This document shows positions 2,130 to 41,426 of a stretch of 64,000 nt of DNA, piece after piece (within the stretch, counting starts at the first letter, position 1; every line of letters begins with the position of its first letter). The DNA is from an uncultured virus (IMG/VR IMGVR_UViG_2684622652_000002) (lineage: Duplodnaviria > Heunggongvirae > Uroviricota > Caudoviricetes): IMG/VR virus record IMGVR_UViG_2684622652_000002; one strand, written 5' to 3'. The position numbers and the translations under genes are program-made. The notes under the pieces are model-generated. The model was not told the DNA's origin. It was given only the letters and a program-made list of their open reading frames with translations, and made no database searches.

Positions 2130-3156
2130 TATGCTAACCTCACAATATAATTAAAAGCAATGTTCTTCACCGTAGTTTCTGCATTACCGTCTGCGTCTAC
2201 AATCACGACGTGTCCATGTGGACCGATGTATACAGTATGATCATGCGGGCCAATCCATGTGGTATGTGCGTGATCGCCATTCCAGCTTGTTAACTGGTCA
2301 TTGCCATCACGCTGAACGCGAGCTTTTCCACCGATTGAATCACCACCGTATGTGCCGCCCGCTGAATGGTTATGACCGCCTGTTGTATTAGAGCTCTTCG
2401 TTCCGTAATCAAATGACGACGCACCTTTCGTTCCTAGATCAGTATCTTGCGCTCTGGCGCTGTGACTGTGCGATTTGTTGCCATCCAGCTCCTGAGAGAG
2501 CACAGCGCGCCCGCTCGCGGGCTTGCCTTTGATTGTCCAGCCGCGCATGTCTGGAATAGTGCCGGATGGATAAGCTATTGCTAGTAAGAGACAAACGCTC
2601 TTATCAAAGCTCTCGCCCTGCATCAGGGCGTAACCAGCAGGGATGGTGTCAGACGGCCACGGAAGGGGAACGCCGGGCGGACACGACATCAGGGGACGCC
2701 AGGTAAACCCGGAATCATTGGTTGCGTCCCAGCGCGCGCCAATCCAGGTGTTGCCAACTGAGTCTGTTATCAGAACGGCGCAGCCGTCTACGCAATCGCG
2801 CTTGGCAATCACTTCCAGAAAAACATAATCGTTTACCGGCAATATCGTTGCCGGAGCTTTATTGCTGGCAAACCGGCGAGCACCAGACGGCAGAATGCTC
2901 AAATCATCGGCGGTACTTACCCACATAACGGGCTGAGCACCAAGACCGGTCTGGGTGTCGTCTATAGCTCTTTTGGCGGTGGAAATACGGATGTCGTCAC
3001 CAGCGGCTACAGTGCCTGGCGTGGTGCCGACGTTGAGTGTAGCACTGTTGCCAAGCTGGAGGGACTGACGGGCCAGCGATTTATCTGGCACATCATTCAA
3101 GTTCTGGTCTTTTTGCATGGCGCCAGTGGCCAGATTTATCGTTTCGCCTAAACCAA
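2129..3156 (-). CDS. Silent alternative tail fibre C-terminus (Sv') with collar domain
   Basis: Begins at the crossover with the same GLGETINLA peptide; collar motif [22 protein letters not shown]; ends [12 protein letters not shown]. Confidence 0.88.
3129..3156. repeat. Right crossover (cix-like) inverted repeat
   Basis: 28-bp perfect inverted copy of 1-28, adjacent to the invertase gene. Confidence 0.9.
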
Positions 3157-4223: not shown

Positions 4224-4663
4224 TCAGTTGGATTGTCGGCGCTATCGCACTGGCTATTGCTGACCGCTTTCTGCTGAAGCGTAGCGATATTTCAGAAATC
4301 CACTTAGGTGAGGCCGAGTTCCTGGGCGGTTTTGTCCGCGTACCTATCACCTATAAGAGTCGTTTCCCGTTTTTACGGGGGGCAACGATTCGATACTGGA
4401 TGAGTGATGCGCGTAAGCCTACAACCGTCGTAGAAGGCGATCAACGTAACTTATCTTATGCAAAGAGAGGCGAGAACTGTGAATGGCTATTCATTCCTAC
4501 CGAGTATATGGGGGGAGGGAAGCGTTTATGGCTGTTTACTGCCAACGTTACACATGGTGACTCATTTGTGAATCCGTTGTACCGAATTTTTCCAATATCG
4601 AAGCAGGTTCGGAGAAGCTACTGTTTGGATCTATCACAGGAAGTGAATGATGACCGGAAATAA
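4220..4663 (+). CDS. lydB: Antiholin LydB
   Basis: 147 aa; lydA-lydB-hdf synteny. Confidence 0.82.
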   Translation: MISWIVGAIALAIADRFLLKRSDISEIHLGEAEFLGGFVRVPITYKSRFPFLRGATIRYWMSDARKPTTVVEGDQRNLSYAKRGENCEWLFIPTEYMGGGKRLWLFTANVTHGDSFVNPLYRIFPISKQVRRSYCLDLSQEVNDDRK

Positions 4664-5252
4664 ATACGCTACGGTTGATTTTGACCAGATTAATGAAAAA
4701 GGCTTAAAAAGCCTCATAACGGCGATTAACAAAACGGGAACAACGGTACTTGAAGTAGAGTCCAGTAACCGAGCCACAACGAAAGATGGAGTTAAAGTTA
4801 AGACGGCGAAGCTGGTATTGCAGGATGGTCAGATGCTGACAATTCAGGTCAACGATACTGGTGATATTTCCTCCGTTAAACTGAATGGGCGTGTTATTCC
4901 TAACGCACAATCACCTGACATTAAGTCGTTGGGTGCGGTAATGGGGCGCGCAGCGCTTAATAATTCTCAAAAGTTTCGTAAATCATTGGCTGCAAAAGCC
5001 AAGCGTGTGGCAAATCCTGTCGATAAAAAGCCCGCAGTAAAATCCAGCTTTCAACAACTCCAGGAAGCGAAAGCCCGTAATGCACAAGTAACACAGAATT
5101 ATCGCTCTATTCAAAATCAGGTTGCGGTAAATCAGCAAAATATTACCGATCTGCGTGGCCGGATGGACAAAGAAACAGCACGGTTAAATAACGCCAGAGC
5201 AAAAAATATTGAGCTGAAAACACGATTGAAAAATCTGAAGTCGGGGAAATAA
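4650..5252 (+). CDS. hdf: Hdf, homologue of a DarA fragment
   Basis: Size and position before darA; coiled-coil C-terminus. Confidence 0.85.
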   Translation: MTGNKYATVDFDQINEKGLKSLITAINKTGTTVLEVESSNRATTKDGVKVKTAKLVLQDGQMLTIQVNDTGDISSVKLNGRVIPNAQSPDIKSLGAVMGRAALNNSQKFRKSLAAKAKRVANPVDKKPAVKSSFQQLQEAKARNAQVTQNYRSIQNQVAVNQQNITDLRGRMDKETARLNNARAKNIELKTRLKNLKSGK

Positions 5253-16843: not shown

Positions 16844-19800
16844 ATGGCAGACATATCTGGTGGAGTTTTCTCTTGTAAAAGTATTAGCGAGATTGTTCGA
16901 TTTATTAGAGCAATTTCAATGCGTCGGCAACCCGTATCTTTCGGGGTAAATAAGGTTGAGGGAAAGAGTTTCGACAGGCTTCGCAAAGAGGCGAATGCAA
17001 AAGCGGTTGATTTGCTTAACAGCCTGACAGATGGGGCAGAATTAACGGACGAACAGCGGCAGACACTCGCTGGTTATACCGGGGAGGGGGGAATTGGCGG
17101 TTCTGTTTCCGAATACTATACGCCGCAGCCGGTGGCAGAGGGTGTATGGGAAATAATGAAACTCTACGGTGCCGACGTGGGAAATACACTGGAACCGTCT
17201 GCTGGCACTGGCGTATTCAATGAAACGAAACCGGTCGGTACGGTAATGACAGCAACGGAGATTAGCACCGTTTCCGGCAGGATAAATAAGCTTTTGCACC
17301 CGGAAGATAGCGTCCAGATTTCTCCCTTTGAGCAGTTGGCAGTCAGTACCCCGAATGACACCTTCGATCACGTCGTTGGCAATGTACCATTCGGCGGGCG
17401 CGACAATACGCGCAACATCGATAAACCGTACGCTGAAGAAACCGACATGGGGTCGTACTTCATGTTGCGCATGCTGGACAAGATTAAACCCGGTGGCTTT
17501 ATGTGCGTAATTGTACCGCCATCTATCGTTTCCGGCACCAACATGAAGCGGCTCCGCCTGCGCCTTTCCCGAAAAGCTGAGTTTTTAGGTGCGCACCGAC
17601 TCCCGACCGGCACCTTTGATGCCAACGGCACCAGCACCGTCGTTGATGTCGTTCTGATGCGCAAACACCCGAAAGAGATGGCCGATAGAGTTGCACAGGC
17701 GGAAGAAAGCACGCTGGAAGCCGCGAATGTCCTTTGGCCAACGTTTATCACTGGCAAATGGTTTGAGCGCGACGGTCGCCGGTTCGTCCACGGTACGCAG
17801 GAAAAAGGCTTTCAGGGACGCATTGAAGTACGCGCTGATGGGCAGATCGATAATCTGGCGCTCAAGGCGAAGCTAATTCATCGTTTCGACAGCCGTATCG
17901 ACTGGTCAATGTTGGATATTGATGAACCATCACCAACTGCTGATGTGATTGATGAAGGTGAGATGCGCCTGATTAATGGCGTGTGGCATAAATTCGCGGG
18001 CGGTCGCTGGATTGAGGCCGACGCGGGTAAAGAGTTGGTAATCGACAACGAACGCTTTGGCGCGGATAGCTGGGAAGCACTTCAGCGTAACCTTTCTACT
18101 GCCGAAGGCCGCCTGGGGATGACCTTTGACCAGATGGCAAATGTACGGCAGCAGTACGCCAGCTCGCTAAGCGATGACCAGGTTCAGATGGTGGACTGGA
18201 TTGGCAGCCAGCCTGAGAAATACCGCACCCGCCTCTATCGTGGGGCTATGCTCGGTCGCATGCTGATTGAATATCAGGACATGAAGGCTGCCGGGCATAA
18301 CGAAGATGATATTGAACAGCGCCGGTTGTCACTGGCGGCCAAAGTTCAGGCTGAGATTGACCGCTTTGGTAATCCGGGGCGCGGCCCGATCGCAAAACTT
18401 TCCGGTGCTGGCGCCCGTGCCTGGTTCGCGTTCCGTGGGGCAATTAAGCTTGATGGTTCTATTTCCGATGAACTGACCGGAAAACTGGTGACACATGATG
18501 CCAGTGCAAGCTACGACTCCACCAGCTATCAGGACACATTACGTCACCTCTACAGTGATCTCACGCGCGATCCCGTTCAACTTGAGGATTTCCGCCAGGC
18601 ATTCACAGGAGATATTCCCGCCAGTGATGATGAATTGCTTGATCTGCTGGCTAACACGCCGGGCATCGCCGTTTCACCATATGGCGGCATTGTGCCGTTC
18701 GCCCGCGCCACCAGTGGCGACATAAATGAGATCATTGCACCTAAGCAGGCCTTTCTCGCCCAACTGCCGGATGGCGCGGTAAGAAATAACGTTCTCAACC
18801 AACTGGCGGCTATTGAGGAGAAACGCCTTAAAACCCCGGCGGAAAATATTCGTTTTAAACTCAACAGTCGCTGGTTTGACCGCTCGGTCATACTGGAGTT
18901 TTTGCAGGAGAATGGTTATCCGGATCTGCGCTATGTCCAGTCTGTTCAGATGGAAGGCGACGAAATGGTGTCCGAAACGTATCACGGCGGAGACGGCCTC
19001 TTTGTTGGTCATCGTTATGGTGTGGTGCAGCGCAAGGACAAAGAAACCGGCGAGATCCGCTATGAGTGGGACAAAAAATCTGGCGATAACGCAACGGGAT
19101 TCCCGGCGCAGTTGGAGAAATACCTTAACGGTGCGCGCATAGGCGGGAAAGATAGCGCGACTGCGAATGGTTATCGCGAGCAGATGGCGCTGCTGGAAGA
19201 ACAATTCAACAAGTGGATAAAAACCCATGACCGCTATGATGATCTGGTCGCCAAATACAACGACATCTTCAACAGCAATATTCCGTATGAGCATTCCGGA
19301 GATTCTTTAGGGCTAACCGGGATCAGCGGCAAGCGTCTGCCGTTTGATTACCAGAACAGCGAGGTCCGTCGTTTATCAGAAGATGGGCGTGGTATCCTGG
19401 GATTTGGGACCGGCTTAGGTAAAACCACAACTGGCCTGGCGCTGGAGGCATTCAACTTTGAGAACGGACGCTCTACGCGCACCGCGTACGTTGTGCCAAA
19501 ATCCGTGCTGGAAAACTGGTATTACGAGGCGAAGGACTTCCTGAGCGAGCAGGCCTTCAGTAATTACCTTTTTGTCGGTCTTGACGTGCTAATGGATGGT
19601 GATCAGATTCGCCAGGTCCCTGTACTCGATGAGAACGGTAAGCCGGTAATGAATGCCGACGGCACGCCAGTGATGCGCGACGGACTCAAGCTGGCAGATG
19701 AAGCGACCATAACGGCCCGCATGAACGCGATCCCGCACTCCAACTATCGTGCAGTAGTGTTTACCAAAGAACAGTACGCCCGCATCCCGCTACGCAATGA

Positions 19801-22800
19801 AACAGTGGACGAACACGCGCAGGATATGCTCATAGATTTCGTGGCCGCCGGTCGCGTGTCCAGCGCGATGGAGTCCGACTCCCACCGTAAAGAAGCGGCG
19901 CGCCGACGCGTGCTTTCCGAGTATTCAGATACCGGCACCGAGAAGGCCGAGAAATACCCGTATTTCGAAGATATGGGCTTTGACAGCGTGATCGCCGACG
20001 AGGGTCATAACTACCGCAACAGCTACAAAAATGGCCGGGAGGCCTCCCAACTGGCTTATCTTCCGACCAGTGCTGTAGCGCAGTCGGCTCGCGACATGGC
20101 GATCAAAAATGCCTATCTGATGAAGAAGAATGGCGGGCGCGGGCCGGTGATGTTGACGGCTACACCGATAGTTAACACTCCGATTGACGCCTACAACATG
20201 TTGTCTCACGTCCTGCCAAAAGAGTTTTGGCAGAAAATGGGCATCTTCGGGCCAGATGACTTTGTGAAATTCTTCGGCAAAACGCGCCTGGAGACGGTCC
20301 AGAAAATCAGCGGCGAAGTCGAAGAAAAAATGGCGCTGGTGGGCTTTGAAAACCTCGATGCGCTGCGCGGCATTTTCCACCGTTGGACGACGCTGAAGAC
20401 AGCGGAAGACGTGAAGGACACAGTAGAGATCCCTGAACTGGATGAACGCCAGCAGGATGCGCCACTTACCGATGAGCAACTGGCGGCTTATGAGGAACTG
20501 CGCAAACAAGCCGAGGCGGCAGCGAAAGCCAACAATGGAATGGCCACCATTGAGCAGGAGGACGGGACCACTACCGAGGAGAAAGCACGCCCGATCTTCT
20601 CCATCATCCGTGACATGGACCGTGTTTGTACGGATATGGATCTGTATCACCACAGAATTACGTATCGTTTCCTGCCGGAACACGCCGATGCGGTACAACA
20701 ACTGGCGGACAGCCTGCCGAAACAGGCCACCAGCGAGGATGACGACAGCGATGAGGCAGTGACACAGCAGGTGCAATATTCGCTGATCGACAAAGGCGAA
20801 TTTATCCAACTCCAGGTGCCGGAGGCGTTCGAACCCGAAGTGAATAAACGCCTGGCAAAGTTCGGTATTGACGAGCGTACCGTCACGCATCCGGTTACGC
20901 CGAAGTACGCGAAGCTAATCGCTACACTGAAGGAGTTCTTCCCGCAAGGTAAGCAGATCATCTTTACCGACGAGAAAACGCAGCACCAGAAGCTGAAGCG
21001 CATTATATGTAACGCACTGAATATCGACCCGTCACAAGTTGGTATTCTCAACGCCCAGACCGTTGCCGACGCTGGTAAATCTGGCAAGAAACTGAAGGCT
21101 GTTAAGCCACCGAAAGACCTTCCGGATGAACCTACCGAAGCGCAACTGACAAAATACAATGAACAGATGGCCCTGTATGATGCCTATATTGCGCAGCAAA
21201 ACGAGATGTCGTTAAGCGGGCTGGAGAAAATCGCCGCCGATTTCCAGGAAGGCCGTACCCCGATCATCATCTGCAACAAAAAAGCCGAGGTAGGTATTAA
21301 CCTGCATCGCGGCACAACCGACATCCATCATCTTACGTTGCCGTGGACTCCGGCGAGTATCGCGCAGCGTAACGGTCGCGGCGCCCGCGTCGGCTCCAAC
21401 CGCGCCAGCGTGCGTGTTCACTACTACTGCGGTAAAGGTTCTTTCGACGAGTACCGCCTGAAGACGCTGAAGCGCAAGGCGGGCTGGATCTCCGATATTC
21501 TCCGTTCCGATAAATCAGAAATGGAGAATGCCGACGCCAACGACATGATAGAAATGCAGATGTACACCGCCAAAGATGACGGCGAACGTTTGGCGATGAT
21601 GCAGGTACAGATGGATAAGGCTAAGGCAGCGCAACTGGCGCGCCAGAAAGAGCAGGCCGGTGTTGACCTGCAAAACTATGTCAAGGCGCAGCACGCCGCC
21701 GGCGAGGATGTGGAGGCGCTGGCCGCGCAGCTGGAAACCAGCAAAAACGAGCTGGAAGAGGTGGTAGCAGAGGTGGCCCGGTATCGTCAGTTGGTGCTGG
21801 CCAAAGCGGCAGAAAACGAAGAGTGGAAAGCGCGCTGGGGCAGTGTTTACAGCAGCGACCGTCTCCAACTCTCTCAGTATCGCAACTCGCTTAAAGCGGC
21901 GATTCGCCGTAAAGCCGACCTTACCAGCGCGATCAGCCAGCGCGAGAAACTGCTGACGCGCACCAAAAAGGCGGCGACGGATATCAAACGTCTGCGTCCG
22001 CTGGTGGAAGATGCGATGAGCAAAGGCCTGCTGAGTGTCGATCCTGATCTCATTAACCACGCCAAAGATTTTCTGGTGATTAACGACCAGTCCTGGCGCG
22101 TGGGGCAGTATTACGAGAACAACGGCGATATCGTTCGCATCAAGGCGTTGGACTTTGACAGCCAGCGTGCTGACGTCGAGGTGATTTTCTCCAGCAAAGG
22201 CACCCGTTCAAGCTCCTGGCCGGTGCGGTTGCTTCAACAGCAGGTTGACGTAACCCCGGATGAAGCGGCGGTTATGGGTAAAATCAGCGGTGGCGTGTCC
22301 ATCGCGGGGATTAACGATCTCATCAGTCGCGACGACTTCTACCGTTTCCAGCAGCGCGGTATGCTGAAAATCACCGACTCCTATGCGATGCAGAACACCG
22401 AGCATGGCTACTCGATGGAGTTTGTCAGCAGCTCCGATACTGTGCAGAACGCTGTTTATCCGGACCGTACTGATGGCGCGCTGAAGTCGGCGATCGCGAA
22501 GTGGGCGCTGGGCTACCTTGCCGCTGGTCAGGGGTACAAAATCAGCAGTGCCGAGTCGTTTTTAACCGAGCTGTTTGGCAGTAATTACCGTGACGTGATC
22601 TCTTCCTACGGTGACGCACTTTCCCCTGAAGATATTCAGGAGCGTATCGTGGCCGAGATCGCCAAACTTCCGGCGAAATCCCCGGATGGTTCAACGCGTA
22701 ACGGTGATTCTGAGGTGGAGGTGGCCAACGCCATCTTTAACAGCTATCCGTTCCGCGCGTCCGCTTATGAGCTGGGTACGTCAGAGTTTGGCGCAATCAG

Positions 22801-23608
22801 TGTCTACAGCAACAAAGCGGAGATTAAGGCCGCGATGGATGCAACTAACGCGCGCATTGCTGCCGAGCGGCAGGCGAATCTGGATCATGCCGTTGAGGCG
22901 CTGGCGCAATCGTGGGTGACGGCAATCAAGGGAGCGGTAGCAACTGGAAAAATTACCCCTACAATTGCTGATGTTGTTAATGATGGTGCTAAATTCATGG
23001 ATGCGTATCGCAATGGCTCAATGCCGATGCCAACTGCATACGGCATGACTACCAATCATCCGACGTATAATCTGGTTTCCATGTTCGCCGATCTGGTGAT
23101 TCTGGATCTGGTGGAACTGAGCGAGGTAACGCCGACGCTGTTGAGCGCCCGTAAAAACTATCTCGACGTGCTGATTCGCGTGGCAGACGGGCTGCGGGCA
23201 CGCACAGACGAGCAGAAGGCGGCGGACGCTGACCGCATCAATCTGGCGCTGGGTAATATCACGGAAGAGGAGGTCGCCGCGCGTAACGCGCAGCAGGACG
23301 AGATAGCCACGGTGCAGGGCGACGCCACCAGTACCGCCCAGGCGCTGGGGCTCAACTACCGCGTATCGACCGCCGATCTCAAAATGATGTACGCGCCGAA
23401 GTTCGCCGCTGGCGAGGTGTTTGGACTACAGGAGGCATCTGGTCAGAAAGGCGTATTGTTCCGCGCCAAAGACGAGTTGAAAGATAAGTTCAAAGCGCGC
23501 TGGCTGCCAGCGAAAGCCAAGAATAGCGACTTCCCCGGCAACTGGTGGATCATCGAAACTAAACACAACGCAGCGGACGTGCTGGCCGTTATCCAACAAT
23601 ACGCATAA
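16844..23608 (+). CDS. darB: DarB: N6-methyltransferase plus SNF2-like helicase antirestriction protein
   Basis: 2254 aa; LEPSAGTG and GNVPF MTase motifs; GTGLGKT, DEGH and QRNGRGAR helicase motifs. Confidence 0.95.
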   Translation: MADISGGVFSCKSISEIVRFIRAISMRRQPVSFGVNKVEGKSFDRLRKEANAKAVDLLNSLTDGAELTDEQRQTLAGYTGEGGIGGSVSEYYTPQPVAEGVWEIMKLYGADVGNTLEPSAGTGVFNETKPVGTVMTATEISTVSGRINKLLHPEDSVQISPFEQLAVSTPNDTFDHVVGNVPFGGRDNTRNIDKPYAEETDMGSYFMLRMLDKIKPGGFMCVIVPPSIVSGTNMKRLRLRLSRKAEFLGAHRLPTGTFDANGTSTVVDVVLMRKHPKEMADRVAQAEESTLEAANVLWPTFITGKWFERDGRRFVHGTQEKGFQGRIEVRADGQIDNLALKAKLIHRFDSRIDWSMLDIDEPSPTADVIDEGEMRLINGVWHKFAGGRWIEADAGKELVIDNERFGADSWEALQRNLSTAEGRLGMTFDQMANVRQQYASSLSDDQVQMVDWIGSQPEKYRTRLYRGAMLGRMLIEYQDMKAAGHNEDDIEQRRLSLAAKVQAEIDRFGNPGRGPIAKLSGAGARAWFAFRGAIKLDGSISDELTGKLVTHDASASYDSTSYQDTLRHLYSDLTRDPVQLEDFRQAFTGDIPASDDELLDLLANTPGIAVSPYGGIVPFARATSGDINEIIAPKQAFLAQLPDGAVRNNVLNQLAAIEEKRLKTPAENIRFKLNSRWFDRSVILEFLQENGYPDLRYVQSVQMEGDEMVSETYHGGDGLFVGHRYGVVQRKDKETGEIRYEWDKKSGDNATGFPAQLEKYLNGARIGGKDSATANGYREQMALLEEQFNKWIKTHDRYDDLVAKYNDIFNSNIPYEHSGDSLGLTGISGKRLPFDYQNSEVRRLSEDGRGILGFGTGLGKTTTGLALEAFNFENGRSTRTAYVVPKSVLENWYYEAKDFLSEQAFSNYLFVGLDVLMDGDQIRQVPVLDENGKPVMNADGTPVMRDGLKLADEATITARMNAIPHSNYRAVVFTKEQYARIPLRNETVDEHAQDMLIDFVAAGRVSSAMESDSHRKEAARRRVLSEYSDTGTEKAEKYPYFEDMGFDSVIADEGHNYRNSYKNGREASQLAYLPTSAVAQSARDMAIKNAYLMKKNGGRGPVMLTATPIVNTPIDAYNMLSHVLPKEFWQKMGIFGPDDFVKFFGKTRLETVQKISGEVEEKMALVGFENLDALRGIFHRWTTLKTAEDVKDTVEIPELDERQQDAPLTDEQLAAYEELRKQAEAAAKANNGMATIEQEDGTTTEEKARPIFSIIRDMDRVCTDMDLYHHRITYRFLPEHADAVQQLADSLPKQATSEDDDSDEAVTQQVQYSLIDKGEFIQLQVPEAFEPEVNKRLAKFGIDERTVTHPVTPKYAKLIATLKEFFPQGKQIIFTDEKTQHQKLKRIICNALNIDPSQVGILNAQTVADAGKSGKKLKAVKPPKDLPDEPTEAQLTKYNEQMALYDAYIAQQNEMSLSGLEKIAADFQEGRTPIIICNKKAEVGINLHRGTTDIHHLTLPWTPASIAQRNGRGARVGSNRASVRVHYYCGKGSFDEYRLKTLKRKAGWISDILRSDKSEMENADANDMIEMQMYTAKDDGERLAMMQVQMDKAKAAQLARQKEQAGVDLQNYVKAQHAAGEDVEALAAQLETSKNELEEVVAEVARYRQLVLAKAAENEEWKARWGSVYSSDRLQLSQYRNSLKAAIRRKADLTSAISQREKLLTRTKKAATDIKRLRPLVEDAMSKGLLSVDPDLINHAKDFLVINDQSWRVGQYYENNGDIVRIKALDFDSQRADVEVIFSSKGTRSSSWPVRLLQQQVDVTPDEAAVMGKISGGVSIAGINDLISRDDFYRFQQRGMLKITDSYAMQNTEHGYSMEFVSSSDTVQNAVYPDRTDGALKSAIAKWALGYLAAGQGYKISSAESFLTELFGSNYRDVISSYGDALSPEDIQERIVAEIAKLPAKSPDGSTRNGDSEVEVANAIFNSYPFRASAYELGTSEFGAISVYSNKAEIKAAMDATNARIAAERQANLDHAVEALAQSWVTAIKGAVATGKITPTIADVVNDGAKFMDAYRNGSMPMPTAYGMTTNHPTYNLVSMFADLVILDLVELSEVTPTLLSARKNYLDVLIRVADGLRARTDEQKAADADRINLALGNITEEEVAARNAQQDEIATVQGDATSTAQALGLNYRVSTADLKMMYAPKFAAGEVFGLQEASGQKGVLFRAKDELKDKFKARWLPAKAKNSDFPGNWWIIETKHNAADVLAVIQQYA
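16898..16914 (-). promoter_or_regulatory. C1 operator-like site inside the darB 5' end
   Basis: Minus strand ATTGCTCTAATAAATCG (15/17 consensus). Confidence 0.65.
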
Positions 23609-23641: not shown

Positions 23642-24082
23642 ATGGCAACACTATCTGATACAATCAAACCAAACAAGACTTACCTGGAGGCGCTGTTACG
23701 AACTGCGCTTTTAGGGAAAACCGAAGATGAATATGTTGATTTTTTCCTCAAAGGGTTACGCGGGCGTCTGTTAAAGAGTCCTCGTCTTTATCGCAGCTAT
23801 GGACCGTACTGGCCTGAAATTAAAAAGCTGCTACTGGAACGCGGTTATGGCAATTTTGGCCGTCTGATTGACCGTGATGTTCGTAAAATTTATCGTTTCG
23901 ACCGACCAGCCTTAACGCTGGTGGCCGCGACCTTATACAGCCAAGAAAGATTTAATAATGGGCAGATCTATTCTGCCTGGCACTTGTTACCTGTTCCACC
24001 GGACGTTGATGATGCAGACTACCCGTTTGAGTCTTACGATCTGGAGGTGGAGGTTTTAGTTCCTGGGGAGGGGAAAAATTGA
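23642..24082 (+). CDS. ulx: Ulx (DarB incorporation factor)
   Basis: 146 aa between darB and lxc. Confidence 0.85.
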   Translation: MATLSDTIKPNKTYLEALLRTALLGKTEDEYVDFFLKGLRGRLLKSPRLYRSYGPYWPEIKKLLLERGYGNFGRLIDRDVRKIYRFDRPALTLVAATLYSQERFNNGQIYSAWHLLPVPPDVDDADYPFESYDLEVEVLVPGEGKN

Positions 24083-35415: not shown

Positions 35416-36119
35416 CACTCATCATCCAATCCGAGGCTTATATCATTGGTATTGAGAAGGCACTAGACGATTCAGAGCGCACCGTTGGGAGCATCATCGA
35501 ACCGCAGAAAGACGGATCTACACGTGTTGTGGCTACGTTCAATGAGGCAGTAGCTTCCGTCATAGAGCAACTGGACAACAAGGTACGCGCCGCCGAACAG
35601 CGCGTAAAAGAGATGGAAGCGAAACAGCAGCATATCAGCCTGAAACCGCAGCCGCTAACACTGGCGAACGAGACGATGGACGTTGAGCGCCTGCGTGAAA
35701 TCGCTGAAGAGGACAATGGTAGCGACGTTAAGTTTGAATGCTCAGTGATGGCGCGCATGCTGCTTTCTGTGGCCCTAAACAGCGATCCAGTGGCCTATAC
35801 CGACGCGGAGGAGTTGGAGAGCCTGGAAGGAGTTGATGGGCACTCTTACGCGCACCTGTGGCCAAACTCCTACGGTTTCGGCAAAGACATTGCGCTCTAT
35901 ACCGTTCCGCAGATGATGCCGCTGCCGGTGAACATCCTGGACGATGAAACCAATCGGGACGTCTTTGAAGCCTGGGTGGCGGACTATACCGGCCATACCA
36001 AAGGCTTTGTGCGCCAGTTCCGAGTAGACGACAAATACCGTAGCGACTCGATGTGGAATAAATACTGGAACACCTGGAATGCCTGCCGCACCGCCATGCT
36101 CAACGGAGGTAAATCGTGA
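35412..36119 (+). CDS. Mosaic Ead/Eaa-like accessory protein
   Basis: PVAYTDAEEL and WNACRTAML modules. Confidence 0.65.
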   Translation: MTLIIQSEAYIIGIEKALDDSERTVGSIIEPQKDGSTRVVATFNEAVASVIEQLDNKVRAAEQRVKEMEAKQQHISLKPQPLTLANETMDVERLREIAEEDNGSDVKFECSVMARMLLSVALNSDPVAYTDAEELESLEGVDGHSYAHLWPNSYGFGKDIALYTVPQMMPLPVNILDDETNRDVFEAWVADYTGHTKGFVRQFRVDDKYRSDSMWNKYWNTWNACRTAMLNGGKS

Positions 36120-36976
36120 AAGAGAATCAAATCCGAGAACTGGTAAACGAGCTGCGTGATATTGCTATTGAGTATCACGGCACACAACAGTTACGTGAAC
36201 AAATTGCGCGTACAGTTCGTGCAGCGATAATTCAGGCCGGCAACTCTCCGGTGATCGGCATTGACATGGCATCTGAACCTGATCGCTCGGTGGATGTTCG
36301 CTACCTTGCTCCTCCTGGCTACGTGATGGTTCCTAAGGTGGTGACGCCGGAAATAGGTAACGCAATAAACGAAGTTGGTCAACGCTGCACATGTGGTAAT
36401 TGCTCGCAGCGATTATGGGATTTATTGCTTGCGTCAGCGCCGGTACAGGTAGATATTGAAATGCTGGCGTCTACGCTCAAAAATGCTCCGTTAGCACCGT
36501 CGGATAATCAGGGAAGGCCGAGAGCGCCAGTGGTGCCGCCCGCCATTGAGCCAGATTACAAGGTCATTAAAAGTATTCTGCCCACGGCCAACCCTGATGA
36601 ATATGCGTGCTGCATTGCTGCTGACATGTGGAACGCCTGCCGCGCCGCCATGCTTCAGGGTGCCGAACCTGTAAGTAATCGTGATGAGTTGCAGGTAATC
36701 GGCTGGTTGCGTAGTGATTACAACAGCGACGACAAACGCGACCCTAACGCTCCGTTGTTTATGCTGGGTAGCAATGACCCGTCAGAGACCTGGGGAGTTA
36801 AGTACATCCCGCTTTCTGGCAACTCTCCGGTAATTCCGAGTGGTTGGGTTATGGTGCCAAAAGAGCCAACTCAGGCCATGATTAAAGCGTGGCTATCAGA
36901 GGTTGCTAACTTTCGCGGTCATGCAGCCGGTTACAAGGCTGCGCTGGCAGCAGCACCACAGCGGGAGGTGAAGTGA
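36116..36976 (+). CDS. Mosaic Eaa-like accessory protein
   Basis: GNSPVI twice, WNACRAAML, GWVMVPKEPT modules. Confidence 0.7.
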   Translation: MKENQIRELVNELRDIAIEYHGTQQLREQIARTVRAAIIQAGNSPVIGIDMASEPDRSVDVRYLAPPGYVMVPKVVTPEIGNAINEVGQRCTCGNCSQRLWDLLLASAPVQVDIEMLASTLKNAPLAPSDNQGRPRAPVVPPAIEPDYKVIKSILPTANPDEYACCIAADMWNACRAAMLQGAEPVSNRDELQVIGWLRSDYNSDDKRDPNAPLFMLGSNDPSETWGVKYIPLSGNSPVIPSGWVMVPKEPTQAMIKAWLSEVANFRGHAAGYKAALAAAPQREVK

Positions 36977-37017
36977 TATTTCACCCTTCAAAATTGACCA
37001 ACATTTGCTTTAATTTA

Positions 37018-37037
37018 TACTGTATGAAAATACAGTA
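37018..37037 (+). promoter_or_regulatory. LexA (SOS) box overlapping a sigma70 promoter
   Basis: TACTGTATGAAAATACAGTA (CTG-N10-CAG); -35 TTGACC at 36994. Confidence 0.88.
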
Positions 37038-37052
37038 TTCATGGTGGCTAAA

Positions 37053-37319
37053 ATGGGTGGCAAAGTACCTAACTACCAAATCGTTTATAGAGACGAGACA
37101 CTCAATTATTTCAAGCCTGGAGGATATGTTTTCTTTCAAAGGCTTAAAGAATATGGCGGTGGTTATTGGTTAGGCAAAATTTACGAGGATGGATTCGAGT
37201 TTGTGCTTGAAAGGCCAACCTCATTAAGTGAGGGAATTAAGCATTTACTTGTTTTAAAATACGTTGAAGATGGGTATCTGGAATTTGTAGATGATATCGA
37301 CAACTTCAAGCTCCAATGA
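37053..37319 (+). CDS. Putative SOS-inducible hypothetical protein (88 aa)
   Basis: ORF immediately downstream of the LexA box; AT-rich. Confidence 0.7.
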   Translation: MGGKVPNYQIVYRDETLNYFKPGGYVFFQRLKEYGGGYWLGKIYEDGFEFVLERPTSLSEGIKHLLVLKYVEDGYLEFVDDIDNFKLQ

Positions 37320-37416
37320 TGCGATAGCTTTTAACATATCTCATGTGAAGATTATACGTTTGAATGTCATTCTGCACGTAGCTATCTGCCCATTACCAAC
37401 ACCTGAAGGATGACAT

Positions 37417-37692
37417 ATGTCAATTCAAACAACCCAGATAAAACTACTGGCGTCAGCGCTGGGTCTTAACAGAGCTGATATCGCAGAAATTATTGCGCTT
37501 GGCGGCGTCACTGTATCTAAAAGTCGCGTTGATAGCTGGTTGCGCAGCAGTTCTGCGACAAAAAATGCAACCGGGAATTCCGACCTACAGGGGCAACGAA
37601 TTAACCGGGCCGGCACGATAAAACCGGAAGAATTTCACGCTTTTTGTGTTGGACTGAAGCCGTGGCTTGACAGAGTGTCGCCAACGGAATAA
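37417..37692 (+). CDS. Small HTH-like protein (DUF1456/YehS-like) directly upstream of the CRISPR mini-array
   Basis: AAGGA RBS; LGLNRADIAEIIALGGVTVSKSRVDSWLR...FHAFCVGL pattern. Confidence 0.65.
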   Translation: MSIQTTQIKLLASALGLNRADIAEIIALGGVTVSKSRVDSWLRSSSATKNATGNSDLQGQRINRAGTIKPEEFHAFCVGLKPWLDRVSPTE

Positions 37693-37699
37693 TGTGTCC

Positions 37700-37840
37700 T
37701 TGTTCCCCACATAACGTGGGGATAACCCAGTAGTTATAGAAAATTGTTTTCTTACTGTGGTTTTGTTCCCCGCTTATGCGGGGATAAACCGGCTATATGG
37801 CCGCCTCATACGAAGTTCCCCATTTTATGGGGTAAGGTAA
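37700..37840 (+). CRISPR. Cas-less type I-E-like CRISPR mini-array (three degenerate repeats, two spacers)
   Basis: R1 TTGTTCCCCACATAACGTGGGGATAACCCA (37700-37729); R2 TTGTTCCCCGCTTATGCGGGGATAAACCG (37763-37791, 24/29 to the enterobacterial I-E repeat GTGTTCCCCGCGCCAGCGGGGATAAACCG); R3 AAGTTCCCCATTTTATGGGG (from 37813); spacers 33 and 21 nt. Confidence 0.85.
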
Positions 37841-37867
37841 AACAAGCGCTCTTCGGGGCGCTTGTTT
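37840..37867. terminator. Hairpin terminator closing the mini-array, likely bidirectional
   Basis: AAACAAGCGCTC-TTCG-GGGCGCTTGTTT. Confidence 0.8.
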
Positions 37868-37924
37868 GCTTATGGAGAGGTACAACATCATTCATTTTCC
37901 TCGGTTTTAAAACCGTATTCCCCT

Positions 37925-38497
37925 TTATCCGTTCTGCACTTCGCGGATGCGTTTAATCACGAATTCCCGAAGTTCGCTTAATGCGTTTGCTTCGTTCCCC
38001 AGCTTCGAGATAGACATCTCAAGCGCATTGCTATACCAGGCCAGTTGAGGCAGGTTCATGTGATTATGATTGAGGGTAGGTACAACCTCTACAGCCTCGT
38101 TTTTTTCCTGCGTCAACGAGAACATATTCATTTCTTCCATAGTGGCGAACTCACCCACAATAACCGGCTGGTGGTCTGGTCGCTGTGGCTGTCTAATGAG
38201 GACAAACGGCGGTTCTGTCGAGTACAGGAATGTCGGTTCAGCGCGTTTTTTTACCCATTCAGCTTGTTTCTTTTCTGCCAGTTCACAGGCTTCATCATAC
38301 GTATCAGCTACCCCCAAGAAAGAAGAGCGATCCCATGATCCGCCATTAAGACAACGCACCATAATTTTTCCGTCCGGTTGAGTAAGCCCATACGGATGGT
38401 CCCACCAGGCGTCGAGCTGGCTCTTAGAACGTTTGTCGTTTGGTGTAATGTCAAAATTTGCCGGCAGTTTAGGGTCCAATGGAATGCAGTTAGGCAT
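37925..38497 (-). CDS. Hypothetical protein (190 aa)
   Basis: Long ORF with RBS-like AAGGGA; converges on the terminator. Confidence 0.75.
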   Translation of the reverse strand: MPNCIPLDPKLPANFDITPNDKRSKSQLDAWWDHPYGLTQPDGKIMVRCLNGGSWDRSSFLGVADTYDEACELAEKKQAEWVKKRAEPTFLYSTEPPFVLIRQPQRPDHQPVIVGEFATMEEMNMFSLTQEKNEAVEVVPTLNHNHMNLPQLAWYSNALEMSISKLGNEANALSELREFVIKRIREVQNG

Positions 38498-38685
38498 AAA
38501 TATCCCTTTCCGAGAGTGTTATCCTCACAGAATACCCTGAAAAGGCTTTCTGATAACGTGAGATTCCAAACATAATTAAATAATTTGTTTGTGTTGACAA
38601 ACAAAAATGCAAGCCATTATATCGGCTACATGGCGCTAAAACAGCACCATCGCCCCGGCGCTCCGGGCACAAAAGGAAATCCATC

Positions 38686-38967
38686 ATGAAACCGATGCTC
38701 AAAGCTACCTTCTTTCCCCTCGAAAATGCCCCCTCCGTTGCAGCCAACACAGACATTACTATGCCGCTGCAAATTATCTCTGATTACATGCTGCGATTCA
38801 TGCACAACAACAAAGACGCCAAGCTTTTTGAAGCTAAAGAGCGGCTCGAAAAGAAGATTACCCTGTTTATTGCTGATGGGTACGACGAGCAGCGCCTACG
38901 CGGGGCGCTATCCGCTGCCACCAGCAGCCATACTCGCGAAGCCTTCCTCGCCGCTATTCAGTTCTGA
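38686..38967 (+). CDS. Hypothetical protein
   Basis: AAGGA RBS; alternative start at 38761. Confidence 0.6.
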   Translation: MKPMLKATFFPLENAPSVAANTDITMPLQIISDYMLRFMHNNKDAKLFEAKERLEKKITLFIADGYDEQRLRGALSAATSSHTREAFLAAIQF

Positions 38968-38969
38968 GA

Positions 38970-40058
38970 GTGAAAATGAAGAGCTTAATTATCATGGCCT
39001 GCTCTGCGACAAAGGGCAGGCAAGCAGCACCGGCAATGGACCTTTATCAAGGGGTTATGTATTCGACATTCCGTGCGAACGTTACTGCAACACGACCTGC
39101 CATTGTCATTCTGTCGGCAAAGCACGGCTTCATAGAGGCGGATCGCGTTATCGAACCCTATGAACAGCGCATGACTGAGGCGCGTGCCAATGAAATGATC
39201 GCCGAGCTGCCTGGTTTCGACTCAATAGAATGGCCCGCTGGTGTGCGCTCAATCCTGCTTGCTGGTGGGAAAACTTACCGGAAAGTGATGCTTGCTGCGG
39301 TCGAACGCCGTAAAGCACTTGGTTTGCTTGATAGCAACATCGTTATCGAACAAACGAGCGGCGGTATCGGTTATCAGCGTGCGCAGCTTGGAGCTTACCT
39401 GCGAAATCTTACACAGCGTTCTAACCGCACCAAACAGAAGCTAAAGCTCACGGAGGCGCAGGTCTTCACCCTCCGCCGGATGATGACCGGAACCAAATAT
39501 CAATTGCGGGGTGACGGTAAGAAAGCTCACGAAAACCGACCTTCGATAGAGGTTAAGCGCGGCCAATGGTTTCGTACGATTGACCCGATCAACGCACCCA
39601 GCGTGCCGGTGCTTTATCGCCTGGGGCTGGTGGACTTCGCCAATAATCGTGGTCAAGAACCCACGAAGTATTACAATGTGCGTTTGACTGACAAAGGCCT
39701 GAATGCCTTAGCGCCGGAGAACGACATGACCAAAGCCCCTGAGCAACACGACCCACGCAGCCTTAACCCTATGAAAGAAGCCGTACCCGCATCGTCGGCA
39801 ATCCATATGCGAGTCACCCCAGACCGCAAAAAGCGTTACGTTAACCAGGCAAGGGCTGAGGGACTGAAGCTAACCGACTGGATTCAGAAGCACATGGATA
39901 ACGTTTGTAATGATGCGGGGCAGCCTGACACCACAATGCACAAAGAGGTGGTGATCATCCACGGTTTGGGGCAGAAGCCCGGTAACGGTAAATGCGTGCC
40001 GTTTGAGGCGACAGAGGACAGTGGGCTGGCAAAAATGAAGGGCAAGGGTGATGAGTGA
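38970..40058 (+). CDS. Multidomain protein: DUF6884-like N-terminus and C-terminal ribbon-helix-helix-like segment
   Basis: IMACSATK...DLYQG...ILSAKHG...IEPYEQRM; IHMRVTPDRKKRYVNQARAEGLKLTDWI. Confidence 0.65.
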   Translation: MKMKSLIIMACSATKGRQAAPAMDLYQGVMYSTFRANVTATRPAIVILSAKHGFIEADRVIEPYEQRMTEARANEMIAELPGFDSIEWPAGVRSILLAGGKTYRKVMLAAVERRKALGLLDSNIVIEQTSGGIGYQRAQLGAYLRNLTQRSNRTKQKLKLTEAQVFTLRRMMTGTKYQLRGDGKKAHENRPSIEVKRGQWFRTIDPINAPSVPVLYRLGLVDFANNRGQEPTKYYNVRLTDKGLNALAPENDMTKAPEQHDPRSLNPMKEAVPASSAIHMRVTPDRKKRYVNQARAEGLKLTDWIQKHMDNVCNDAGQPDTTMHKEVVIIHGLGQKPGNGKCVPFEATEDSGLAKMKGKGDE

Positions 40059-40391: not shown

Positions 40392-41426
40392 ATGAAAGCT
40401 GTCATCACACCCTTTGTCCAGAAAGAGTTAGGTCTGGCCACATTCAAAGTAGATGATGATGTTGCCCGCCTGGTTAGTTCTGGCCGTAAATTCATTATGG
40501 AACCTGTTGCGCGTGAGCTGGTGGATCACATGGAAGACGGGGTAATTCACACCGAGCAGTCTATGGCCGCCAACGAATCGTTACGCCCTTTCTTCATGAG
40601 CGAAGAACTTTTCCGGCGAATAGGCGGCATTGAGTCGTTGAAGGATTACCTCCGTAACAATGTGGCCTGCTGCCAGTCTCCCGATCGCGATTGGTGCGAC
40701 AACAAGCTGGCTTACACCGAACGCAATAACAGCGCCGTTGTACTGTGCTGGCACCACGACAACCATTACATGATGCGCGGCTTTGCTGAACTTGAAGAAA
40801 CGCTGTATCGAAACCGTGTGAACTGGATACTGGATAAGGCCCGGAGTGAGATGGGGCTACCCGACAGCCGGGACTTGAGCATTCAGGAACTTTGCTGGTG
40901 GGCCTTTATGCGTAACATGATAGAGGTGATGCCAGAAGAGGTATGTCGGATAGCGATCAACAAGCAAAAAGCCGCTGAAGAGCAGCCTGGACCAATGAAA
41001 GAGGCTGACATTAAGCCTTACGATGACAGGGCAATCGCCTACATCCGCATGATGGAAGAGAAGGCGGCGCCGATGCGTGAAAAAATCTGCCCTGTGGACA
41101 CAGATCCAGATCCGGGCATGGCTTACTACAAGAGACCAAAGCTCCAGTCGCTGAAATTACCTGATTACCTGGCGTTCGTATCATCTCGCCCATGCTGTGG
41201 CTGCGGGGCATCTGGCAATAATGCCCGGATAAGCCCGTTTCTGGTACAAAGTCGCCGCCTGTGCGCCCATGATATCTACGCGGTCCCGTTGTGCCACCAA
41301 TGCCAGACTGAAATAGCGCGCGACCGTACAGAATGGGAAAATAAACATGGGAAGCTGGTGGTTCATCAGCGTTTATTCTTTGACTACGCGCTGGGAATCG
41401 GCGCTATCACAAGTCATTCGTCGTAA
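40392..41426 (+). CDS. pdcB: PdcB / DUF968-family protein
   Basis: LCWHHDN, ELCWWA, PCCGCG, PLCHQC; precedes lpa. Confidence 0.78.

Follow-up and report, generated by a model that had tools for sequence, protein, structure and literature searches.

A stretch of 64,000 nucleotides from an uncultured virus of the Caudoviricetes (IMG/VR record IMGVR_UViG_2684622652_000002; the whole stretch is called the window below) carries a small open reading frame (ORF) that ends a few nucleotides before three repeats of the kind used by type I-E CRISPR-Cas (short palindromic repeats that are clustered and regularly interspaced, with associated proteins) systems. The question raised by this locus is whether the gene and the repeats belong together and what they might do. 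Our analysis favours, on balance, a two-part counter-defence cassette directed against type I-E CRISPR-Cas, composed of an array for anti-CRISPR RNAs of the Cracr type and a helix-turn-helix (HTH) protein partner. The assignment of the array to the Cracr type is made with good confidence, and the sequence comparisons lean, with more reserve, towards a counter-defence role of the protein.

The ORF encodes 91 amino acids (aa) and occupies positions 37417-37692 of the plus strand, from an ATG to the TAA stop codon at 37690-37692. A Shine-Dalgarno sequence, GAAGGA, read from the sequence, lies 6 nt ahead of the ATG (37405-37410, plus strand). As described in the first-pass annotation of this DNA, the gap between the stop codon and the first repeat unit, which begins at 37700, is only 7 nt long (37693-37699); the statement that it holds neither a terminator nor a leader also stood, given this length and a consensus scan that found no promoter-like or terminator-like site between the ORF and repeat 1. 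Four promoter-like sites were detected between 36900 and 38600, which is not above the number in shuffled sequences (mean 3.0). Directly 3' of the third unit there is a terminator-like hairpin (37841-37873, plus strand) with an 11-bp stem, a UUCG loop and a T-rich tail, which was seen by RNA folding and missed by the simple terminator scan. The stretch 37685-37875 folds far more stably than its shuffled versions (z -5.78, 0 of 200 shuffles). In its centroid fold the hairpins of unit 2 and of the terminator are present and pseudo-spacer 1 forms one internally; in its minimum-energy fold units 1 and 3 pair together. Based on this anatomy, it is plausible that the ORF and the array are placed on one transcript; if this came from an early promoter, it would be in keeping with counter-defence. 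One RNA-library contig extends over 37701-37854, a weak hint only, as contigs reveal neither ends nor strand, and three small RNA-library contig sets from one study cover 37701-38360 piecewise and leave the ORF uncovered. Since starts, ends, strand and level cannot be read from such contigs, they are not used here to judge co-transcription or processing. No Rfam families were found in 36000-39500.

All three units and both pseudo-spacers are read on the plus strand. Pseudo-repeat 1 (37700-37729) consists of a 5-nt flank, a hairpin (CCCCAC-ATAAC-GTGGGG, 37705-37721) and an 8-nt handle (ATAACCCA), and a Cas6e cut would be expected after 37721. Compared with the stem of unit 2, its stem shows a compensatory change from G-C to A-U. 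It is followed by pseudo-spacer 1 (37730-37762), which is 33 nt long and forms a self-folding hairpin. Pseudo-repeat 2 (37763-37791) is the most canonical unit, with the hairpin CCCCGC-TTAT-GCGGGG and the handle ATAAACCG; of its 25 bases that were compared with I-E repeats on the chromosomes of two related hosts, 21 are identical and the four differences all lie in the loop, and its exact pattern occurs once in the window against 0.12 occurrences expected. Pseudo-spacer 2 (37792-37812) has 21 nt. Pseudo-repeat 3 (37813-37840) is degenerate: its hairpin, CCCCAT-TTT-ATGGGG, is one base shorter and its handle is not conserved. The locus thus departs from a canonical type I-E array in its pseudo-spacers of 33 and 21 nt, against the canonical 32 nt and the 61-nt spacing of the canonical arrays of hosts, in the missing leader and in the lack of cas genes among the 51 window ORFs scanned.

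Cracr RNAs are viral RNAs resembling CRISPR RNAs (crRNAs) that load the Cascade of the host and turn the effector onto cas or toxin promoters, cas promoters being repressed in this way (Liu et al., bioRxiv 10.1101/2024.10.29.618823). According to the available text of this preprint, in which 20 type I-E Cracr arrays are listed, their hallmark is a pseudo-spacer like that of the host CreR or CreA, with at least 9 matches to a cas or creT promoter next to the protospacer adjacent motif. The array tested there, from a Salmonella enterica prophage (strain Se29), has pseudo-spacers of 24 and 21 nt, the latter matching Salmonella CreR; its third repeat has a one-base deletion and a smaller loop, is poorly processed and is directly followed by a terminator. 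Processing of the Salmonella I-E Cracr array was Cas-dependent. The window array resembles that of Se29, as far as the latter is described in that text, in its three I-E pseudo-repeats, the 21-nt second pseudo-spacer, the shorter loop of the third repeat, the terminator directly after it and a mobile element as carrier. Unlike in Se29, pseudo-spacer 1 of the window is 33 nt long, unrelated and self-folding, and the carrier is a P1-like phage-plasmid. One of the homologous loci described below, L011 on a Salmonella-type prophage contig, has pseudo-spacers of 24 and 21 nt and is presumably the published Se29 array; the terminator, unit 3 and, with one mismatch, pseudo-spacer 2 are common to it and the window. 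The first feature by which Cracr arrays are recognised, I-E-like units situated on a mobile element outside any cas locus, is likewise seen in the three units of the window.

Two other kinds of RNA are related to this array. CreR is a Cas-regulating RNA of type I-E loci of hosts, including Salmonella, and is built of two degenerate pseudo-repeats around a short pseudo-spacer (bioRxiv 10.1101/2023.03.10.532045, available part). CreR forms part of the cas locus and works for the host, whereas the window array is located on a phage-plasmid behind a protein gene. Racr elements are solitary repeat units that act as RNA anti-CRISPRs and are often found beside acr genes (Camara-Wilpert et al. 2023, PMC10651486, available part). 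They have in common with the window the mimicry of repeats by a mobile element, and a distant homologue of our locus, L057, has a single repeat unit; a Racr requires no pseudo-spacer match, whereas the three units of the window come with pseudo-spacers, and one of these falls into the CreR-mimicking class.

The matches to CreR were analysed in the hosts of related arrays. The hosts of L006 and L007 carry cas8e and canonical I-E arrays, and among three further hosts cas8e was found in G197 and G400 and not in G179. In two of the four cas8e-bearing hosts, G003 (Pectobacterium polonicum) and G197, a pseudo-spacer of the resident prophage array is almost identical to the pseudo-spacer of a degenerate CreR-like element between cas3 and cas8e, with seed runs of 17 and 19 (0 of 100 shuffles), and an AAG-flanked partial match, identified by eye, is situated closer to cas8e. 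CreR-like two-unit elements between cas3 and cas8e were visible in G003, G400 and G197, and none in G002; they are placed at about 977-1050 of L023 (minus strand) and upstream of cas8e in L068 and L069. The earlier proposal of an anti-CRISPR RNA locus is therefore well supported, both by the published anatomy of I-E Cracr arrays and by pseudo-spacers of relatives that are copied from the host CreR.

Whether the gene is a regular companion of the array was analysed in homologues retrieved from 43 clusters, plasmid records, two species genomes and 15 viral contigs; the locus searches used the four-sequence alignment A4, the wide alignments A2 and A3 being too diverse. In 20 of the 21 homologue loci, one to five I-E-like hairpins were found on the same strand just 3' of the stop codon, and the 21st (L009) stops at the contig edge. 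The gene was present in three further genomes of the 401 searched, all three with hairpins, and a Klebsiella michiganensis plasmid (L074) retains two units. When duplicates were merged (L004 = L008 = L032; L007 = L010 = L040; L006 = L064; L012 = L065; L013 near L014; L015-L019 and L022 alike), 13 distinct architectures with repeats were obtained: the window type, L005, L006, L007, L011, L012, L013, L015, L020, L021, L066, L067 and L074. Their proteins are 55-97% identical, they have two to five units with differing pseudo-spacers of 20-52 nt, and their hosts include Salmonella, Intestinirhabdus, Pectobacterium and Erwinia. The first strictly detected unit begins 7-23 nt past the stop codon in 11 of the 15 parsed loci; in the other four, examined by eye, it is degenerate (L006, L011, L013) or split by about 100 nt (L067). 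The linked repeats are always of the I-E type, also in other host families (Erwinia, Pectobacterium), and the last unit often ends in ATTTTC, so that it doubles as a terminator. In a distant homologue (about 40% identity; one element in four loci) a single I-E-like hairpin is placed inside the 3' end of the ORF and is followed by a terminator.

The hairpins are preserved by compensatory change. In the alignment of 29 distinct units, 94.8% of the cells were paired, even though three unit-3 rows were off by one base and scored as unpaired. At two of the six pairs both bases were exchanged (seven units with A-U in place of G-C, three with U-A in place of C-G), and the covariation score was reached by none of the 500 shuffles. 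Moreover, the array was more conserved than the ORF in the comparison with L004 (4 differences in 178 positions and 33 in 276, respectively). Two of the loci deserve a separate description. In L067 (1715-1905) the sequences CCCCATG and CATGGGG are about 100 nt apart, which looks like an insertion in the loop, and its gene is a 152-aa form fused to an N-terminal XRE HTH; the host genome is G179, in which no cas8e is seen. In the distant element (L057, L059, L060 and L061, at 1775-1803) the same bases encode the tail of the protein and the repeat, with a strong terminator about 45 nt later.

The ribosome-binding site, ORF, array and terminator form one mobile cassette, since other replicons match only that stretch. 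Two other plasmids match solely 37406-37883 and 37406-37879 of the window, and another contig has 37422-37870 in common with it, flanked by different DNA on both sides. The limits of the cassette are thus about 37406 on the left and about 37870-37883 on the right.

According to the substitution pattern, the 91-aa ORF is a real gene under purifying selection, since the changes are mostly synonymous: the differences to L004 are distributed over the codon positions as 5/2/26, with 23 synonymous and 7 non-synonymous codons, and the nucleotide differences to L006 as 21/15/53. The search for related families gave a Pfam match to DUF1456 (PF07308) with E 1.6e-5 and 25.5 bits against a gathering cut-off of 27, in which residues 13-47 align with positions 10-44 of the 68 of the profile. 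Precomputed PF07308 matches exist in several close homologues, and the Atlas neighbours of the protein are DUF1456 clusters. By sequence, the protein is a sub-threshold relative of DUF1456 (YehS-like) that is not filed as a member. The PHROGs, NCBIfam and PADLOC databases gave nothing for it, and no match to the Pfam families of anti-CRISPR-associated (Aca) proteins was found. A profile search of 1.84 billion representatives retrieved only 83 proteins at E <= 0.001. Residues that are invariant or nearly so include G29, G30, S34, D39, W41, R43, K49, G53-N54-S55, R64 and F73-A-F-C-x-G-L.

The AlphaFold model, based on a 66-row alignment, had a pLDDT (predicted local distance difference test) of 86.4 and showed helices at residues 3-15, 19-28, 35-42 and 70-87 with a lower-confidence hairpin loop between; a conserved insertion of about 25 aa (about residues 44-68, motif ATKNATGNS) separates helix 3 from the last helix. 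In an exhaustive VIA-align search the top 50 matches were mostly Cro/C1-type HTH domains, 29 chains having Z >= 5 and none Z >= 8. The best were Aca10 (7xi5_A, Z 6.7, root-mean-square deviation 2.4 over 56 residues) and a putative DNA-binding protein; controller proteins, P22 c2, the 434 repressor and Aca1 were also listed. We read the modelled protein as a Cro/C1-type (lambda-repressor-like) HTH with a conserved insertion of about 25 residues. In the model, the arrangement of helices 1-3 and the C-terminal helix is like that of Aca10, Aca1 and Cro/C1-type regulators, whereas the insertion, the Pfam score below the cut-off and the lack of a detected operator set the protein apart from Aca10, Aca1 and DUF1456. 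Of the earlier description as HTH-like with a DUF1456/YehS-like pattern, the first part is thus borne out by the predicted fold, and the second holds as a real match that remains below the family cut-off. A likeness to transcription activator-like (TAL) effectors (PDB profile, summed E about 1e-21) was treated as a repeat-summing effect, as no single stretch passes. Positions 9-37 of the profile of alignment A2 match a 5,830-aa protein (P0044) in 23 stretches, and together with the TAL matches this points to a faint similarity between the helix-GG-helix part and repeat units of 34 residues.

The fold brings in the first alternative, already named in the first-pass annotation: an Aca-like autoregulator, i.e., an HTH repressor that binds an operator and tunes the transcription of the cassette with no anti-CRISPR activity itself. 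The Cro/C1-type fold with Aca10 as the best match and with Aca1 and controller proteins among the others agrees with it, as do the additional N-terminal XRE HTH of some relatives (P0039, P0068) and the position of the gene, in L011, L007 and L074, behind one for a protein of 164-168 aa whose HTH matches, of the Aca2/YdaS type, are weak and sub-threshold. However, there is no conserved operator region at 37320-37416, since the cassette starts 11 nt before the ATG and the gene stands close behind other ORFs in 9 of 15 loci, where the nearest upstream same-strand ORF overlaps the gene by up to 8 nt or ends up to 44 nt ahead of it. No conserved sequence upstream of the gene was found across contexts, and no inverted repeat was reported in 36500-39000. 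The absence of a match to the Aca families and Z values within the range common for small helical folds are further points against it, and so is the fact that about 1,048 Klebsiella-type plasmid records retain the gene and lack an array, to which we return below. An autoregulator is therefore considered rather unlikely; the earlier suggestion agrees with the predicted fold but not with the upstream sequence.

The block 5' of the gene is itself conserved between the Salmonella-type prophage L011 (1869-2990) and the Klebsiella IncF plasmid L074 (1368-2490). It comprises a Gp111-like gene of 124-125 aa, a gene of 78 aa and the 164-168-aa protein, which also precedes the gene in L007 (2465-2971) and whose weak sub-threshold matches include Aca2/YdiL, YdaS and Cro-type HTH. 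The gene is mostly part of an operon; L011 has, in succession, ea-type genes, three small genes, the 91-aa-type gene, the array, the terminator, an excisionase and an integrase.

The closest precedent for a protein gene paired with a Cracr array is acrIF24, which is tightly linked to I-F Cracr genes and arrays across several genera and whose protein can be used as bait for them, according to the available text of the Liu et al. preprint. Like acrIF24-cracrIF, the window has a gene for a small HTH protein tightly beside a Cracr array; unlike it, the subtype is I-E and the protein is a candidate anti-CRISPR (Acr) only. The sole likeness to AcrIF24 itself was a non-significant Foldseek row (7t3j_J, E 4.1, probability 0.07). 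The first-pass annotation knew of no description of the pairing. The array kind is now in print, and the pairing with this protein was not found in the searched text of the literature on RNA anti-CRISPRs and solitary repeats, on DUF1456 and on Salmonella type I-E Acrs, so that apparently the protein partner has not been described before. In its available text, the preprint mentions neither an upstream gene in the account of Se29, nor HTH, DUF, hypothetical or neighbour genes, nor Aca, and its supplementary tables may list neighbours; the DUF1456 literature, by its titles and the beginnings of its abstracts, contains nothing on CRISPR.

For the functional steps in the window we infer the following from relatives and the literature. 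The ORF and the array would be transcribed together from an upstream promoter, with a stop at the hairpin 37841-37873, as the anatomy suggests. Host Cas6e would then cut the pseudo-repeats, as described for the sister array, to give Cracr RNAs each with an 8-nt handle and a 33-nt or 21-nt pseudo-spacer. As in relatives, these RNAs may occupy Cascade in place of real crRNAs and, because they imitate the CreR guide of the host, may steer it onto the cas8e (casA) promoter, so that cas expression would stay off. The HTH protein made from the same mRNA would be a functional partner with its own activity, most likely an anti-CRISPR or anti-defence activity, possibly together with DNA binding, by analogy with AcrIF24 and the I-F Cracr genes. 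This activity would be tied to I-E systems, since the linked repeats are strictly I-E. Within the counter-defence role, direct inhibition of Cas proteins is a possibility we hold tentatively, an Aca-like regulator is less probable still, and the remainder falls to other activities.

RNA anti-CRISPRs that reprogramme Cascade have been described only recently, and the I-F kind travels with AcrIF24. A conserved I-E protein partner would likewise serve as bait for more I-E Cracr arrays, and would yield a candidate new I-E Acr or regulator in elements of the Salmonella, Pectobacterium, Erwinia and Cronobacter type. A bolder version, to which we give limited credence, is that the DUF1456-like HTH protein evolved jointly with Cracr RNAs and represents a new counter-defence protein, widespread and directed against type I-E systems. 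It might inhibit crRNA-loaded Cascade or Cas6e and spare Cracr-loaded complexes; or it might bind the palindromic repeat as DNA or RNA, blocking the expression of host arrays and marking its own RNA. If so, the leading region of about 1,000 Klebsiella IncF plasmids would encode an anti-CRISPR that has escaped recognition, namely the array-less form, and this relative on conjugative plasmids may help to explain the entry of plasmids and phage-plasmids into I-E-bearing Enterobacterales.

Several results weigh against the two-part cassette. The synthesised Se29 array by itself cut casA transcription and restored T7 plating, according to the available text of the preprint, so the gene was not needed. 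Among 25 viral loci with two short-spaced I-E-like repeats, 23 lack the gene, and both gene-bearing loci are elements already found by the protein search; many of the gene-less array loci differ in repeat flavour and possess a promoter-like region of their own. Conversely, the four Klebsiella-type loci that were read (L073, L075, L076 and L077) have no hairpins, and three other distant homologue loci have none either, two of them being followed by another gene, which in L062 is XRE-type-HTH-like by eye. No significant likeness to a known Acr was seen, Foldseek gave nothing at E <= 0.001 against PDB and BFVD, and the VIA-align values below Z 8 may reflect an arrangement common in small helical folds. 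Compared by primer starts, the protein differs from the three Klebsiella plasmid proteins reported to bind Cas proteins in yeast two-hybrid assays, of which Orf26620 and Orf26750 fall outside the protein family. The predicted hairpin of pseudo-spacer 1 (37724-37762; CAGTA...TACTG and AGAAAA...TTTTCT) is unusual in a guide; a short palindrome (ACTGTACAGT) is also present in the long pseudo-spacers of the L015 and L020 type. In G002 and G400 the resident array is unlike the upstream region of the host's own cas genes (p 0.14-0.71). Pseudo-spacer 2 gave seven three-mismatch hits in 401 Enterobacteriaceae genomes, against about 25 in the reversed-pattern control, and nothing in E. coli, and for pseudo-spacer 1 the search of 50,697 phage and 72,556 plasmid records for protospacers returned only the same cassettes; the target searches for the window pseudo-spacers covered genomes other than Salmonella chromosomes.

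The arrays without the gene, the gene without arrays, the published array that works alone and the absence of Acr similarity would all be expected of a hitch-hiker, that is, a protein unrelated to CRISPR with a function in the early or leading region, the array merely lying between the last gene and the operon terminator and being co-inherited. If the protein is such a passenger, the finding shrinks to one further member of a known array class. Against this, 13 architectures have preserved the linkage, with the repeats invariably on the strand of the gene, while the number of units and the pseudo-spacers turn over; the first unit is mostly 7-23 nt past the stop codon, and the repeats are exclusively I-E across host families. 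The relative with 40% identity has the hairpin inside its coding end, and the tree described below shows a single loss. Taken together, mere co-inheritance appears improbable, and the two-part cassette remains our preferred explanation.

The array-less form of the gene is frequent in plasmids. In the tblastn search 1,055 plasmid records carried the gene, 998 of them from Klebsiella, and about 1,048 represent one allele class at 58-59% identity. L073, L075, L076 and L077 are IncF plasmid loci, with E. coli as the source of one of them; in each, hok and two small ORFs precede a 105-aa gene, and the 630-840 nt 3' of this gene are devoid of such a hairpin. This region (about 2290-3130) has no annotated genes, is GC-rich and contains many inverted repeats. 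The phylogenetic tree of 23 rows, which omits the L002 protein (identical to that of the window), duplicates, the truncated L009 and L059-L061, placed the Klebsiella array-less clade (100/100) within a larger clade, supported at 95/93, that also contains L011, L012, L013 and L074, all with arrays, which indicates a single loss of the array. The proposed test that homologues should be consistently followed by I-E-like repeats therefore gives an answer that depends on the counting: by lineage, 13 of 14 enterobacterial architectures have them, whereas by records about 1,048 of 1,055 plasmids, forming one derived clade, do not. That the gene is retained in the IncF leading region, which is expressed on entry, even where the array is gone suggests that the protein has an activity of its own.

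A genuine mini-CRISPR array acting against competing elements, or a CreTA-like addiction module in which array-guided Cascade represses a neighbouring gene, was considered as well. The repeats are I-E-like and in sense orientation, and pseudo-spacer 1 with its 33 nt is near the canonical length. Both forms are nonetheless very improbable: the second pseudo-spacer has 21 nt, the ORFs scanned include no cas gene, no protospacer was found beyond the same cassettes in the phage and plasmid records, and the adjacent pseudo-spacers of L007 resemble each other. The CreTA-like or self-targeting idea was rejected, as the matches of both pseudo-spacers elsewhere in the 64-kb window did not exceed those of shuffled controls (best seed runs 8 and 9, against 9-11 in shuffles). 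The last 23 nt of pseudo-spacer 1 resemble an iap-side CRISPR spacer (91% identity, E = 8) present in 74 of 5,426 E. coli genomes (L070, 1189-1223). Relative to the repeats, the two sequences run in opposite directions, and by eye a gapped alignment spans the whole spacer; the likeness could be due to chance or be a trace of a common source.

The PHROG scan of the 51 ORFs revealed a Cin-type invertase, tail fibres, DarB-like, Hdf-like and Ulx-like proteins, PmgS, Lpa, a terminase, Ref and a DnaB-like helicase, and by this gene content the window is a P1-like phage-plasmid. The cassette is located in a variable stretch between genes of the P22 'ea' region, phrog_2100 (37041-37319) and phrog_6164 (37925-38497, minus strand). 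Nineteen P22-like Salmonella phages match both flanks and have neither gene nor array. In the phage collection, DNA matches were restricted to the flanks and tblastn with the protein gave none; E. coli genomes gave no megablast match to the region, and the nearest genome record (G001) is without it. The best explanation is that the cassette is cargo at the end of an early-type operon in the phage-plasmid. The anti-restriction genes of the window are Hdf-like (4647-5252), DarB-like (16844-23608, 2,254 aa) and Ulx-like (23642-24082), and given their presence the cassette would be one of several counter-defence loci of this element. Just downstream, an ORF of 362 aa (38970-40058) carries DUF6884 as its N-terminal domain (E 3.2e-15) and also gave a weak NikA-like match, and it is adjoined by an HNH endonuclease-type gene at 40392-41426.

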